DNA of 62,123 bases from the IMG/VR virus record IMGVR_UViG_3300044460_000010, positions 1 to 62,123 of that record; one strand, 5' to 3'. The notes beneath the pieces are model-generated. The model was given only the letters and a program-made list of their open reading frames with translations, searched no databases and was not told the DNA's origin. Position numbers and translations under genes: made by a program. Position 1 is the first letter of the stretch, and every line of letters starts with the position of its first letter. This document shows positions 16,412 to 26,594 of this stretch, one piece after another. This DNA is from a virus (taxonomy: Duplodnaviria; Caudoviricetes).

Positions 16412-16500
16412 AGTCTAAAGTCATAATGTCCAAAGTCTTAAGGTCAAATGCAGTCTGCTCTTGGACTTTACGACGTTATGACCTGTAGACCTTACGACTG
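16412..16500. repeat. Heptamer-based imperfect palindrome (family B)
   Basis: (AAGTCNN)n-like left arm and (NNGACTT)n-like right arm; similar to 35600-35690. Confidence 0.75.
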
Positions 16501-16645
16501 ACAAGAAATGCGGTTCTGACCCGACCCCCACGAGACCGGGCCACCTCCACCGCAAGGCCGCTTTTGGGCTAAGCGGAGCCTGCACACTTAAGGCTGTGCT
16601 GCACCCTCCCAGGACCGCGATCCGTCGCGGTTGCGCGCACGTGAT

Positions 16646-16921
16646 TCAGACTGCGTGTTCAGGTCGCCGCTCGGCGCGGCTGGCTTCGAGTTTCTTGGCA
16701 AGCCACGCCACCAGTAGGCGCTTGGGCACGAGCGGCTTCGTGCCGTGGTAAAACGTCTCCAACTCGCCTCGGCTGACGGCACGCTCAATCTCACGCTTAC
16801 ATATGCCGCAGAACAAAGCCGCGTCGTCAAGACTCATCGCGCCATCAGCACAGTCATCGACGACACCGTGCGTCAGGCCGTCAGCCCGTGGTGCGTACAT
16901 CGGTCGTGATGGTCTTGCCAC
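16646..16921 (-). CDS. Excisionase-like HTH protein
   Basis: MSLDDAALFCGICKREIERAVSRGELETF...LVPKRLL, HTH_17-like; near the integrase. Confidence 0.65.
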   Translation of the reverse strand: MARPSRPMYAPRADGLTHGVVDDCADGAMSLDDAALFCGICKREIERAVSRGELETFYHGTKPLVPKRLLVAWLAKKLEASRAERRPEHAV

Positions 16922-16940
16922 GATCGCGCTCCAAAGAAAA

Positions 16941-17015
16941 ACCTCACCATGCCACACCGGACCGGAGCCGACCCCGCCGCAACAGGCCCCGACATGGCTT
17001 GCCGCGCCGTAACCA
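16941..17015 (-). repeat. GGY-NN pentamer array 1 (15 units), putative guide RNA
   Basis: Unbroken 5-nt phase; 10/15 GGY, all GNY; followed by TTTTCTTT on the minus strand. Confidence 0.85.
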
Positions 17016-17018
17016 CAA

Positions 17019-17063
17019 TCCGCCGTCCCGGAGTCGAACCAGGAACCACCGCCCCGCAGCGGA
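17019..17063 (-). ncRNA. Minimal tRNA mimic between arrays
   Basis: 7-bp TCCGCTG/CGGCGGA stem stacked on TCCTGG-TTCGACT-CCGGGA T arm, 12-nt linker. Confidence 0.65.
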
Positions 17064-17068
17064 AGAAA

Positions 17069-17178
17069 ACCTAACCCAACCACATCCTGGCTTGCCATTC
17101 CACGCCCTACCTGGCCAGGCCCGACCTAAGCACGCCCAACCAAACCAAGCCTGAGCACGCCGTACCTCACCGAACCAG
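17069..17178 (-). repeat. GGY-NN pentamer array 2 (22 units), putative guide RNA
   Basis: Starts 2 nt after the stop of the RAMP-like gene; 17/22 GGY; T-rich 3-prime end. Confidence 0.85.
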
Positions 17179-17180
17179 AT

Positions 17181-17831
17181 TTATTCCAACCCAACCTTGA
17201 AGTTCACGACTTGAAATCGTCCGTATGTTGGGCGAAAGTCCGCTATCCCGATCAACCGTCCCGCGTTTGCGATGACCTCGTTCAGCACTTCGGGGCTGAC
17301 GTATTCCGGCAAGTTGCACATCAGTTGAAACTCCGCTTCCCAGCCCGCCTTGAACGCCGGCCGAATGCGGGTCACGCCGTTGCGTTGGATCTGAACGCGA
17401 CAGGAATGTTCATAATGCCATTGCTTGGCGCCAAGCGATGCGAGCGGGGTTAGTGAAATGATCGCGGCCTTGAACAGGTCCATCGCTGATTTGCGGGGCG
17501 AACGCGGGTCTTGACGGAACTTCGCGGCGTGGATGATGGACCAGCGAATGTACTCGCCGGGGATGCAGATTTCGCTCTCATCGTTGCGATAGACGTAGCT
17601 CTCGACGTTGTCCGTCTTCTTGGATTTGCTGCCCTTCGCTGCCGCCGCCTTCTCCGCAACCGCTTCACAGTTCCAGCGGTGGAACAGAATGTCGGCAACG
17701 CCCTTGATTCGCACCGTGGCGACGTAAGGAATGCCAGACTCAATCGCTCCCGCGCCGCCGTTGGTGGGCCGTTCGCCACCGATTGCGGTCAACCGATTCG
17801 TGCCGTTCGTACTTGGCGCTTTTGTCGCCAT
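17181..17831 (-). CDS. Stand-alone Cas7/RAMP-like RNA-binding protein (216 aa)
   Basis: VRIKGVADILFH first strand, ICIPGEYIRWSI (cf. RAMP IPGSSLKG), C-terminal Gly loop AGRLIGIADFRPTYGRFQV; GGAG RBS. Confidence 0.75.
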   Translation of the reverse strand: MATKAPSTNGTNRLTAIGGERPTNGGAGAIESGIPYVATVRIKGVADILFHRWNCEAVAEKAAAAKGSKSKKTDNVESYVYRNDESEICIPGEYIRWSIIHAAKFRQDPRSPRKSAMDLFKAAIISLTPLASLGAKQWHYEHSCRVQIQRNGVTRIRPAFKAGWEAEFQLMCNLPEYVSPEVLNEVIANAGRLIGIADFRPTYGRFQVVNFKVGLE

Positions 17832-17859
17832 GAAATGAACTCCGTGAAAGAAGAAAGAA

Positions 17860-18079
17860 ACCCTGCCGTGCCACGCCCAGCCTGAACTAACCAAGCCTCA
17901 CCAAACCAAGCCCTGGCCTACCGTGCCCGACCCAGCCTAACCGCACCCCACCCAGCCCTGCCTTGTCCAGGCCAGCCAAACCGTGCCATGCCCCACCGGG
18001 ACAGACCGCACCACTCCGCAGCGCACCGTGCCTTGCCGTGCCAAGACACACCTAAGCATGCCCAACCCCGCCACGCCAT
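17860..18079 (-). repeat. GGY-NN pentamer array 3 (44 units), putative guide RNA(s)
   Basis: 220 nt with no indel; first G invariant, 35/44 GGY; ends in TTCTTTCTTCTTT. Confidence 0.9.
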
Positions 18080-18082
18080 GAC

Positions 18083-18313
18083 TCAGGCTCCCGCGCTGGC
18101 GAGGTCGGCTTGTGCTTCAGCGAGAACCTCGCCGACTTCTTTCCTCATGCTCGGTCGGGCGTGCCGGGCGATAATACCGCCGATGGTTCCGCCGTGCTTT
18201 GCTTTGATCATCTCAGCATATTCCGCGATGTCTTTTGGAACGATCACCTTTCGCATCGCAGACTCGCCCTGCGATTCCTCGGTCGCCTGCGGTTCTGTGG
18301 TCACAGTGCCCAT
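18083..18313 (-). CDS. Small putative DNA-binding protein, first gene of the leftward early operon
   Basis: AGGAG RBS; divergent from 18497. Confidence 0.55.
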   Translation of the reverse strand: MGTVTTEPQATEESQGESAMRKVIVPKDIAEYAEMIKAKHGGTIGGIIARHARPSMRKEVGEVLAEAQADLASAGA

Positions 18314-18363
18314 TTCGGCTCCTTTTATCTGCTCGCTAGTTCTATCCGCAAGTCAGTAAGGAA

Positions 18364-18392
18364 TTAATATCCTCTGGATTGTAAATTGTCAA
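18364..18392 (-). promoter_or_regulatory. Sigma70-type promoter for the leftward early operon
   Basis: TTGACA-N17-TATTAA in an AT-rich intergenic gap. Confidence 0.55.
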
Positions 18393-18496
18393 CTGACGAA
18401 ATCGAAATATTCATTGTGCCGCCCGTGGAGACGGGAAGGAGGTGGCGATAGGTTGGGCATTATGCCCCACCAAACCGGAGGGGAGACATACTACCG

Positions 18497-18742
18497 ATGA
18501 TGATGACTCAGCCAAAAAGCAAGGCGACGACTGATGACAACGCGGTCACAACAGTCAAGGCGCGGCAACGCGTCGCGAGACTGATACGCAAGTACGCCGC
18601 GCTGTTGGAAGTGAATCAGGAATTGATCCTCGACCGCTACGAGAAGTTGATCGAGGACGATCTTTTAGCGGAGATGGCTAGGCAGACGGGCCAGATTCAG
18701 GGCAAGAAGTCTGCCCCAAAGACACAGCCTCCGAAGGAGTGA
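18497..18742 (+). CDS. Small putative regulator
   Basis: Divergent small gene upstream of the integrase; TTVKARQRVARLIRKYAA. Confidence 0.5.
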   Translation: MMMTQPKSKATTDDNAVTTVKARQRVARLIRKYAALLEVNQELILDRYEKLIEDDLLAEMARQTGQIQGKKSAPKTQPPKE

Positions 18743-19120: not shown

Positions 19121-20170
19121 ATGGCATCCCGCAAGCGAGCGCCCAAAGGCACCGGCACCGTGTTCTGGTGCGAGTGCCGTAAATGCTGGATCGCACGCAA
19201 GACGGTGAACGGGGTGCGGATCGAGCGACACGGCAAGACGCAGGCTGAAGCGCTCCGCAAACTCGCCCTGGCACTGCCGCCCGAACCGGCAGTCACGTTC
19301 TCGGTGTGGTCGGCGCGCTGGCTCGAATCGCTCGGCCACAAACAGCAAACAGTGGACTCCTACCGCGACACGCTCCGGTTGCACATCAACCCGCGGTTGG
19401 GCACACGCGCGGTCAACTCCATCACCGCTTTTGATATCAAGGAAGCGATCAAGTTCTGGGGAGAGAGTTCGCACGCGGGCACCGTGGGTAAGATCCTGAC
19501 GTGTCTCTCCGGGTGTCTCCAGGGCGCGTGCGATGCGGAGATCATCACACGCAACGTCGCCCGTGCGGTCAAGCGGCCCGTTGTGTCGAAGGTGGAACTC
19601 GACCTCTTCACGCCGGAGGAACTGAAGCGCATCATCGCGGCCGGGCTGTCACGGCGGACGTGGCGAAGCTTCGCGCTCTGTGCCGCGACGGGTTGCCGCA
19701 TCGGCGAAGCAACCGCGCTCAAGGCCGGCGACTACGACGCCGCTACGGGGATGCTCTCCATCACGCGCACGCTCACCCGCCGGCACGGACTCAGTACCGC
19801 CAAGAGCAAGGCTTCTCGCCGCGTAATCTGGATTCCGCCGGACGTGCGGCCCGCACTCGTCGCGGGCATCCGCAATTCGAGCTACGCCAACGTGCATGTG
19901 TTCTGGCGGAATCTGCTCGCGCACCTGGGGCTGCGATACCGCAACATCCACCAACTCAAGCACTCGGTGGCATCGATCCTCGTAGCGGAAGGGGAGTCGA
20001 TTGCCGACGCGGCGGCGTACATGGGCGACACATTCGAGGTGTTCGCCAGAACGTACATCCACGCTGTGGGAACCAACCCCGGGGCCACTCTTGAGCGCGT
20101 ATTAGGTGGCGGTAAGGTGGCGGGCGAATCGCGTGTGCGTGCGAAAATCCCCGGAAAATCAGGGCTTTGA
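19121..20170 (+). CDS. int: Tyrosine integrase
   Basis: ATGCRIGEATAL, KSKASRRVI, HQLKHSVAS (R replaced by K), MGD...TYIH catalytic Tyr; N-terminal arm-binding domain. Confidence 0.92.
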   Translation: MASRKRAPKGTGTVFWCECRKCWIARKTVNGVRIERHGKTQAEALRKLALALPPEPAVTFSVWSARWLESLGHKQQTVDSYRDTLRLHINPRLGTRAVNSITAFDIKEAIKFWGESSHAGTVGKILTCLSGCLQGACDAEIITRNVARAVKRPVVSKVELDLFTPEELKRIIAAGLSRRTWRSFALCAATGCRIGEATALKAGDYDAATGMLSITRTLTRRHGLSTAKSKASRRVIWIPPDVRPALVAGIRNSSYANVHVFWRNLLAHLGLRYRNIHQLKHSVASILVAEGESIADAAAYMGDTFEVFARTYIHAVGTNPGATLERVLGGGKVAGESRVRAKIPGKSGL

Positions 20171-20535: not shown

Positions 20536-20576
20536 TCGTTGCCGGTCGTTGCCGGTCGTTGCCGGTCGTTAGCCGG
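20536..20576. repeat. Tandem 10-mer TCGTTGCCGG x3 plus a degenerate copy
   Basis: Read directly from sequence. Confidence 0.8.
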
Positions 20577-25688: not shown

Positions 25689-25763
25689 GGTAAGTTCGGG
25701 CTTGGTAGGTTGGGGCTAGGTTAGGCGCGTTGTGGCGTGCTTAGGTATGGTCAGGCGAGATGC
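25689..25763 (+). repeat. Orphan GGY-NN pentamer array 4 (15 units)
   Basis: GGT-AA GTT-CG GGC-TT GGT-AG ...; 10/15 GGY, all GNY, unbroken phase. Confidence 0.8.
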
Positions 25764-26324
25764 ACCGCACAGGGGGCTGGCTTCGGCTTGCCCCCTGTTG
25801 TTTTCACCCTTCCAAGCCACGACGGACGCGAAGAGACCGTATCGCAGGAGCAGGTATCGCCGAATCCCCCGCCTGGCATCCTCCCTCGTCTCAAACACCG
25901 CAATCTTCTCCGTCGGTCTCCAGCGATTGCGCTTCAGCCTTTGCATCACGACAACCTCTTCGCGATTGCCGATCACCCACACCGCGGCGATGAACCCGCC
26001 AAACCGTTTACTCTCGCGAATCTGGAAGGGGTTGATTTTGCGCGTGGCGAGCACCGCCCGCCAGTTGTCGCCGAAGGTCTCCGCGTACCACCGTGCGACG
26101 AATCGCGCCGTCACGTGCGGTTGCGTGCTGCGACTGCCGGGGATGTTGTAGAGGCAGCCCCCGAGCTTCACGCGCGCGACCCACACGGGATTGCCGGCGG
26201 GGTCGATGCGATGGCGGTAGACGTTGCGAAAGCCCGATTCGGCGGTCCGGCAGCGAAGCGGGCCGATCAGGCGCTCAACAGGGACGGTGGAAGTGGTCGG
26301 CGGTTCGCAGAATTGACGCAACAC
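25716..26324 (-). CDS. AP2-like DNA-binding domain protein
   Basis: SGFRNVYRH...WVARVKLGG; start uncertain; C-terminal tail is antisense to array 4. Confidence 0.5.
   Translation of the reverse strand: MLRQFCEPPTTSTVPVERLIGPLRCRTAESGFRNVYRHRIDPAGNPVWVARVKLGGCLYNIPGSRSTQPHVTARFVARWYAETFGDNWRAVLATRKINPFQIRESKRFGGFIAAVWVIGNREEVVVMQRLKRNRWRPTEKIAVFETREDARRGIRRYLLLRYGLFASVVAWKGENNRGQAEASPLCGASRLTIPKHATTRLT
25769..25805 (+). terminator. Intrinsic terminator after array 4
   Basis: ACAGGGGGC/GCCCCCTGT stem, TTCG loop, TGTTTTC tail. Confidence 0.65.
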
Positions 26325-26489
26325 ATTGCCCCCACGGCCATTCGTGTGATACGATGGATTCGCTGGGGTCAGTGTCGAGCGTGCCGGGCAGCAGCAGGCG
26401 GGGGCTTTGCTGCTGCCCGGTGTCGTTATCCCTGGGAGGGGACAGGGTGAGTATGGCAGACGCGCGGGGAACCTGCGGCGGAAGACGGG

Positions 26490-26594
26490 AATACCGCCAC
26501 AGATCGCACGGATAGAGACAGGATCAGAAAAGAATGTTTTCAACTCTGTCTTTTGCCTTTATCCTGTCTTTATCAGCGTAATCTGTGGCTGCTT
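26490..26594. repeat. Palindromic element family A, copy 2
   Basis: AATACCGCCACAGAT...ATCTGTGGCTGC. Confidence 0.85.

Follow-up and report, generated by a model that had tools for sequence, protein, structure and literature searches.

A VIPR locus with long GGY-NN tracts in a temperate tailed phage, probably of Planctomycetes

The window analysed here is the whole of a tailed-virus record (IMG/VR IMGVR_UViG_3300044460_000010; 62,123 bases, single contig), and its minus strand carries a gene for a small RAMP protein, vipr, flanked by non-coding tracts of GGY-NN pentamers. We hold with high confidence that this locus is a Viral Interference Programmable Repeat (VIPR) system of a temperate tailed phage, one that probably infects a Planctomycete. 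Its protein, its repeats and its context all have the characters that define VIPR. The locus is genuine and well preserved, and it is a further example of an already published system. The assignment draws on what was observed directly: the anatomy of the repeats, the homology, fold and contact residues of the protein, the linkage of arrays to the gene, the viral context and the absence of self-targets.

VIPR systems are described in three 2026 preprints (10.64898/2026.04.26.720920, 10.64898/2026.04.26.720927, 10.64898/2026.10.15.759431). Each system combines a minimal RAMP protein with vrRNAs made of 9-16 YNNGG repeats and a structured 3' tail (10.64898/2026.04.26.720920). One Vipr protomer binds each repeat, and double-stranded DNA (dsDNA) is recognised with one base skipped per unit, resulting in strand-independent transcriptional silencing of competing phages and satellites (10.64898/2026.04.26.720920, 10.64898/2026.04.26.720927). 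Seven VIPR types with varied array architectures are distinguished and six vap genes named, 'staggered' arrays and single-vrRNA systems are mentioned, and internal degeneracy of vrRNAs is said to be frequent (10.64898/2026.04.26.720920). Solo vrRNAs are encoded apart from vipr (10.64898/2026.10.15.759431). A sequence-only reading of the window had likened the locus to such systems; they are real, and the protein matches the Vipr of Escherichia phage SUSP1 (PDB chain 36pp_D). The novelty implied by that reading did not hold, since systems of this kind were already published in April 2026.

Four tracts of phased pentamers are present. Tract A (18077-17858, minus strand) lies in the vipr leader, with 44 uninterrupted units, 35 of them GGY, ending 26 nucleotides (nt) before the ATG. 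Tract B (17176-17067, minus) begins 5 nt past the vipr stop codon and has 22 units (17 GGY), while tract C (17013-16939, minus) has 15 units (10 GGY) and ends 17 nt before the GTG start of a helix-turn-helix (HTH) gene. The earlier count of 44, 22 and 15 pentamers, free of insertions and deletions, with G first in 81/81 units and GGY in 62/81, is exact when the minus strand is read, and A, B and C each close with GGTTT and then the T-rich run that had been noted. That inventory of three tracts was correct as far as it went and missed a fourth, tract D (25689-25763, plus), which has 15 units (10 GGY) and lies on the opposite strand, 7.6 kb from vipr. Across all four tracts, G occupies position 1 in 96/96 units, position 3 is T in 50, C in 44 and A in 2 (pyrimidine in 94/96), and positions 4-5 use all 16 dinucleotides. 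Phased-GGY scores for A, B, C and D are 80, 39, 25 and 25, compared to a best score of 8-12 in each of 30 block-shuffles of the whole genome. The phase of tract A is unbroken over 220 nt, and the four tracts have no block of at least four units in common with one another. In VIPR, the gene is flanked on its own strand by tandem YNNGG/GGYNN repeats whose NN vary, which is the arrangement seen here.

The vipr gene (17181..17831, minus; GGAG 8 nt ahead of the ATG) encodes a single-RRM RAMP protein of 216 residues. Position and length had been given correctly from the sequence, although the gene is not 'lone', as it lies between a 76-residue open reading frame (ORF) and an HTH_17 ORF. Both motifs cited as RAMP/Cas7 hallmarks are present, the IPG at I90-P91-G92 and the C-terminal glycine loop GIADFRPTYGRF at residues 195-206. 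A phmmer search with the single sequence matched chain 36pp_D, 'SUSP1 Vipr protein', at E=1e-7, and a profile of 64 homologues matched it at E=3.9e-17 over chain residues 5-188 of 202, placing the protein among homologues of a characterised Vipr. It belongs to an unnamed PHROG, phrog_4652 (E=1.8e-17). Searches of Pfam and PADLOC gave 0 matches each, and the NCBIfam Cmr6 model scored 13.5 bits against a cut-off of 51.1.

The AlphaFold2 model of vipr (pLDDT 92.1, pTM 0.83) has a Cas7/Csm3-type RAMP fold, bearing out the Cas7/RAMP likeness claimed earlier. Best Foldseek matches are Csm3/Cas7 chains, with E from 9e-7 and TM around 0.5. VIA-align gives Z 12.9 to a type VII Cas7 (8yhe_F; root-mean-square deviation 4.2, 163 residues aligned) and Z 12.3 to Csm3 (9ash_F), and the fold match spans residues 32-216. 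All 50 of the VIA-align entries listed are CRISPR effector complexes; the structure library ends at 2026-04-08 and no Vipr is among the listed matches, so 'closest fold' is biased toward CRISPR. The protein has one RRM core, a glycine-rich loop and a predicted thumb, and it has no second RRM, as 216 residues leave no space for one; this is the minimal RAMP form of VIPR.

Residues that would hold the invariant part of each unit can be traced to those of SUSP1 Vipr. In the cryo-electron microscopy structure of the latter, H17 and D177 hold G1, R138 and W178 hold G2, and R179 closes the pyrimidine pocket (10.64898/2026.04.26.720927). The alignment places these at H51, D198, R157, F199 and R200, respectively, so that the residues for G1, G2 and Y3 are all represented. 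Among 64 diverse homologues, H51 is conserved in 51, R157 in 63, D198 in 58 and R200 in 62, and the F199 position is F, Y or H in 49. The G-loop runs from G195 to F206, and its G204 is invariant (64/64). In the model, a beta-hairpin at about 140-160 bears R155 and R157; we predict that it is the thumb because it aligns with SUSP1 R138. A further segment, K66-G-S-K-S-K-K-T-D74, aligns with the SUSP1 segment that holds K33, a reported contact with target DNA (10.64898/2026.04.26.720927).

The same pairing of gene and arrays recurs among relatives. IMG/VR holds 79 distinct loci with Vipr homologues of 52-71% identity, a large protein collection yields 6621 cluster representatives at E<=0.001 out of 7019 candidates, and a 50%-identity library holds 1106 vipr homologues. 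Same-strand GGY-NN arrays occur near the gene in 84 of the 87 homologous loci that are distinct after duplicate removal, upstream in 68 and downstream in 65. The 279 arrays of relatives run to 141 units at most, the median being 15, with at least 20 units in 90 and at least 40 in 13. Positions 1-3 carry 1.78, 1.18 and 0.74 bit of information, values partly built in by the array detector; NN positions 4 and 5, where the detector imposes nothing, carry 0.04 and 0.01 bit. Homologous loci with arrays of different NN, as the sequence-only reading anticipated, are thus the rule. No block of at least six units is common to the genome's tracts and 106 related loci. The RAMP fold is present, the homologues have arrays and the NN positions are not invariant, so that these refuting conditions named in the sequence-only reading all turned out in favour of VIPR. 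A homologue of 85% identity lies on a 12.6-kb contig.

The context is viral. Elsewhere in the genome, PHROGs matches include a portal, a major head protein, an integrase (19121-20170, plus), a ribonucleotide reductase, a thymidylate synthase, a helicase, two DNA methyltransferases and a ParB-like protein. The earlier statement that the genome shows no cas1, cas3, cas5, cas6 or repeat-spacer array is upheld: PADLOC found no Cas protein among its 57 proteins, and Tandem Repeats Finder found no CRISPR-like repeat in the genome. A viral or proviral genome lacking both is the setting in which VIPR occurs. Across the genome, ARAGORN called no tRNA gene and no Rfam family reached its gathering score. 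As to the host, 25 cellular loci have a Vipr homologue (58-67% identity), and 20 of these are in Planctomycetota metagenome-assembled genomes, 16 of them Phycisphaerae. A Planctomycete host is plausible for this reason, and the nearest cellular relatives of the phage are Planctomycetota prophages. Among sequencing runs, the stretch was listed in one DNA run of a sediment metagenome, possibly its source, and in no RNA run.

SUSP1 VIPR (type II, PDB 36pp) is the natural point of comparison. Both systems have homologous Vipr proteins with a single-RRM RAMP fold, a G-loop and thumb residues, GGY-NN arrays on both sides of vipr and on its strand, and a phage genome with no cas genes, no CRISPR array and no self-targets. 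The protein studied here is nonetheless distant from this type II exemplar, with low identity and a single-sequence match confined to its C-terminal 75 residues. The array ends also appear to differ, being GGTTT with a U-rich run or simple hairpins here and a pseudoknot tail in SUSP1. The tracts here lie within mRNA leaders, no vap1 homologue was recognised, and the phage is a temperate, integrase-bearing one whose host is probably a Planctomycete rather than an enterobacterium. The solo vrRNAs of SUSP1-family phages and F5 satellites (10.64898/2026.10.15.759431) resemble tract D in standing alone, away from the vipr operon. Tract D differs from them in that it lies in a phage with its own vipr, 7.6 kb off, and in that its 3' end is an ordinary terminator hairpin and no copy of the tails of A-C.

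The Cas7 and Csm3 proteins of class 1 CRISPR-Cas (8yhe_F, 9ash_F) have the same fold (Z 12-13), one subunit per fixed step of guide RNA and a base-flipping thumb, the last two being attributed to the Vipr here by homology. In contrast to these proteins, vipr has no membership in their sequence families (Pfam, PADLOC, NCBIfam), the VIPR step is 5 nt rather than 6 nt, the VIPR guide is a tandem repeat instead of a spacer between CRISPR repeats, and the genome has no Cas5, Cas6, Cas10, Cas1 or Cas2 partners. We therefore rejected a class 1 CRISPR-Cas effector as the identity of this locus: the fold is common to both, but there is no CRISPR array, Cas partner or Cas7 sequence-family match.

The closest homologue in a named phage is that of DSL-LC04 (GenBank OR003939.1, our L106), with 60.7% identity over 88% of the protein. 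DSL-LC04 has a genome of comparable size (61.5 kb), and three GGY-NN arrays, with 21, 11 and 10 units, precede the homologue. It differs in its neighbouring genes and in its recorded host, a Gammaproteobacterium, and it has no unit blocks in common with the tracts described here. Its homologue, WJZ48083.1 (2465-3082), is annotated as a 'helix-turn-helix transcriptional regulator', and the arrays fall in the unannotated 320 nt upstream.

Based on homology with the SUSP1 system, we propose a model where transcription of the minus-strand operon starts from a promoter-like site (18392-18364) and Vipr protomers polymerise on the GGY-NN tracts of the transcript, one per 5-base unit. Within each unit, G1 would be held by H51 and D198 and G2 by R157 and F199, and the pyrimidine would enter a pocket closed by R200 of the adjacent protomer. 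GGY would be hidden in this way and the NN pairs exposed as a guide. SUSP1 homology, the contact residues and the free NN of the arrays all support the earlier proposal that each subunit takes one GGY and displays NN. The filament may then bind dsDNA, reading xNN xNN, and block transcription there. A fourth guide RNA would come from a small gene of its own (25689-25805, plus). Competing phages, prophages or satellites of the same host are the likely targets, and silencing rather than cutting is to be expected because no nuclease gene is adjacent to vipr. For this clade, every step beyond the repeat anatomy is inferred, from transcription of the tracts and assembly of the filament to the 1-nt skip rule, repression and the kind of target.

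Several observations weigh against this interpretation. The protein has low identity to the sole biochemically characterised Vipr, and the single-sequence match spans residues 135-209 only. Tracts of 44, 22 and 15 units contrast with the 9-16 units of characterised clades, and 19 of the 81 units in A-C are degenerate, that is, non-GGY. A conserved structured tail like the SUSP1 pseudoknot is not demonstrable for the four tracts. Five genes neighbouring vipr have no homologue in 79 related viral loci, so that none of them is conserved as an accessory gene.

The searches for targets also belong on this side, as the suggested pattern search of the NN series against Planctomycete and phage sequences yielded no target. 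The pattern sought was xNN per unit, with one skipped base, unless another skip rule is named. In the phage genome itself, guide segments of 10, 12 and 15 units scored at best the same as shuffled guides, so there is no self-target, and the same was true for segments of 10 and 13 units in 104 related loci. Skip rules of 0-3 applied to tracts B, C and D on the phage genome and 106 loci again gave best scores equal to those of shuffled guides; tract A was searched with the 1-nt rule. No target was thus found in the phage or in the 104-106 related loci. Exact 10-unit segments had 0 matches in IMG/VR (units 3-12 of D, 3-12 of C, 34-43 of A and 12-21 of B), and all 15 units of tract D, with as many as 3 mismatches allowed, were matched in none of 401 Planctomycetota genomes, nor was the reversed control. 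Units 24-33 of tract A had one exact match in metagenome contigs, which we judged to be chance. It does not extend past the seed, with agreement at 8/22 bases downstream and 6/46 upstream, and its skipped base is at codon position 2, not the wobble position, of an apparent ORF; about 2 such matches are expected by chance, a rough estimate that assumes a collection size. These database searches covered exact matches to 5 of the many possible 10-unit segments. The lack of self-targets agrees with a published control, in which VIPR systems were likewise without them (10.64898/2026.04.26.720920).

Might the locus instead be a decaying or idle remnant of VIPR, in which an intact protein sits among drifted tracts that no longer guide anything useful? 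About a quarter of the units (the 19/81 that are non-GGY) are degenerate, every search made came back without a target, the neighbouring genes are not conserved, and there is neither a tail nor an accessory gene. Yet drift would not preserve a G at the head of 96/96 units or an unbroken phase over 220 nt, and the protein retains all of the contact residues checked. Degeneracy of vrRNAs was also noted as frequent in the discovery paper (10.64898/2026.04.26.720920), and the targets of an uncultured sediment phage may be missing from the collections searched. We regard a remnant as improbable.

A functioning filament could also recognise RNA and not dsDNA, with transcripts from rivals or from the phage itself as its targets. 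In favour of this, the nearest matches among solved folds (Csm3 and type VII Cas7) are Cas7 proteins that target RNA, and the tracts are situated in mRNA leaders; of 270 arrays in relatives, 106 stop no more than 60 nt from a ribosome-binding site and start codon. The fold comparison, however, carries the CRISPR bias of a library that ends at 2026-04-08 with no Vipr listed, the lysine-rich K66-D74 segment that aligns with the DNA-contacting K33 region of SUSP1 is present, and the sole experimental data on Vipr are of dsDNA binding and strand-independent silencing (10.64898/2026.04.26.720920, 10.64898/2026.04.26.720927); RNA recognition is, in our view, very improbable. It is more doubtful still that the tracts are cis-acting leader elements, either G-rich structures or protein sites, that tune translation with the RAMP-like protein merely as regulator. 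Tracts A and C do end 26 and 17 nt ahead of start codons, but a hypervariable NN beside a fixed GGY suits a guide and not a structural leader, and tract D stands by itself, ends at a terminator of its own and has no gene after it on that strand. Moreover, the protein is homologous to one shown to use such RNAs as guides.

A VIPR system used for guided recognition of dsDNA, our preferred interpretation, extends a discovery only months old. To date, VIPR has been characterised in enterobacterial and Pseudomonas phages. Here, the same machinery is found in a temperate phage of a very different and poorly studied host group, and the homologue family is large (the 6621 cluster representatives above). 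Compared with the published text, as distinct from its figures and type tables, the unusually long tracts, the apparent want of a pseudoknot-type tail and the position in mRNA leaders seem new here. So, too, do the remote 'solo' tract D with its own terminator and the apparent lack of a conserved accessory gene. Tracts threefold the length of the guides studied, apparently lacking a pseudoknot tail, placed in leaders and joined by a solo guide offer material on how the ends of a guide are set, as well as on how many protomers one filament holds. The picture of what VIPR is remains unchanged by the locus.

It is tempting to go further, though we consider the following unlikely. Guides of this clade may be the uninterrupted tracts themselves (up to 44 units here and 141 in a relative), carried in leaders and spacers of polycistronic mRNA with a U-rich end just before the ribosome-binding site, instead of separate small-RNA genes capped by a pseudoknot. 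If so, a single filament, 44 protomers long, could read a target of 132 bp. Another possibility is that Vipr bound to its own leader and to that of the excisionase-like gene could throttle their translation, which would couple the silencing of rivals to the control of lysis and lysogeny in the phage itself.

The 3' ends of the tracts are not alike. Tracts A-C end with GGTTT and a T-rich run, B is then followed by two hairpins, and D is followed by a terminator hairpin. The latter (25769-25805, plus) is a predicted GC-rich hairpin followed by TTGTTTT, in a 76-nt stretch with a predicted folding energy of -28.9 kcal/mol, and resembles an intrinsic terminator at the end of a putative tract D RNA; no gene lies downstream on the plus strand. 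A 275-residue ORF without a family (25716-26543, minus) is antisense to this hairpin and to the final 48 nt of tract D. Its 3' end may be spurious; otherwise, the guide gene overlaps a coding region.

The 53-nt spacer between B and C (17014-17066, minus) has predicted hairpins at 17062-17046 and 17044-17026 and may serve the tract B RNA as a 3' tail or processing element. Its second hairpin has a 6-bp stem and a TTCGACT loop, resembling the T-arm of a tRNA, and is followed by ACGGCGGA. We dropped the idea of a tRNA-derived attP, as no tRNA was called in the genome and two stretches of the spacer went unmatched: a 24-mer was found exactly in none of 185,579 species genomes, and a 25-mer had 0 matches at up to 3 mismatches in 5 Phycisphaerales genomes. 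The spacer has no Rfam match, and at E<=10 nothing meaningful was found in 16500-18500. Similar 'GGTTCG' arms occur in plain hairpins at the array ends of relatives, and we treat the T-loop-like element as a hairpin spacer. Arrays separated by ribozymes were also rejected, as the locus has no Rfam ribozyme and Hammerhead_II occurs in 2 of the 20 relatives searched, far upstream only.

Along the minus strand, the order is a 76-residue ORF, tract A, vipr, tract B, the hairpin spacer, tract C and the HTH gene. The 76-residue ORF (18083..18313, minus) ends with a stop codon 5 nt before tract A and has no family; nothing was found in Pfam, PHROGs (at significance level), PADLOC or NCBIfam, and the 79 related viral loci hold no homologue. 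Before it is the promoter-like site (18364..18392, minus), TTGACA-17 nt-TATTAA, read by eye, from which the operon transcript may start; because its second hexamer lacks the final T, the site is absent from the consensus scan list. The divergent intergenic region between this ORF and an 81-residue ORF (18497-18742, plus) extends over 18314-18496. Lying beside the integrase, it looks like a switch region, with the promoter-like site facing the VIPR operon.

The gene downstream of tract C (16646..16921, minus; GTG start) is a 91-residue HTH_17 or excisionase-like ORF. Its 66-residue core matches Pfam HTH_17 at E=5.2e-6 (27.1 bits, cut-off 27); the 91-residue form scores 25.8 bits, below that cut-off. 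The NCBIfam model 'excise' matches at E=0.016. By position only, it is a candidate accessory, vap-like gene, and no homologue stands beside vipr in the 79 related viral loci. In relatives, by comparison, the genes downstream of vipr often include RusA, in 49 loci, and a DEAD-type helicase, in 34, and in many the gene belongs to an AAA_24-DUF669-vipr-RusA-helicase replication module. The present genome has no RusA, and its helicase homologue is 8 kb from vipr.

Array ends vary widely between relatives. A T-rich run follows the arrays in 34 of the 270 cases, and several relatives have arrays ending with a GC hairpin and then GGATTG or ATTC. In many Phycisphaerales-type relatives (for example L008, L009, L011 and L014-L016), vipr belongs to a replication-recombination module, and almost all intergenic leaders bear a GGY-NN array. 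Very long arrays include that of L031 (3600-4304; 141 units), and L018, L020 and L047 are among those with 57-59 and 74 units; some arrays of this group score as GGY-NN on both strands simultaneously. In L070/L071 and L057-L069, conserved spacers of about 50 nt separate the arrays, such as 'TTATTGCAAGGAATAGGGCGG...' and 'GCTGCTATGCAGCGTACAG...GATGCG'. These look like structured processing elements, and they gave no Rfam match at gathering score in six loci searched, including L070, L071, L058 and L061. The two Hammerhead_II matches are type II hammerhead ribozymes in L043 (660-728, 53.3 bits) and L047 (576-642, 51.9 bits), about 2.3 kb upstream of the vipr homologue and not between arrays.

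Back in the phage genome, TCGTTGCCGG is repeated four times in tandem (96% matches) at 20536-20576, some 370 nt past the integrase gene on its downstream side. These copies could be recombinase arm sites or part of attP.

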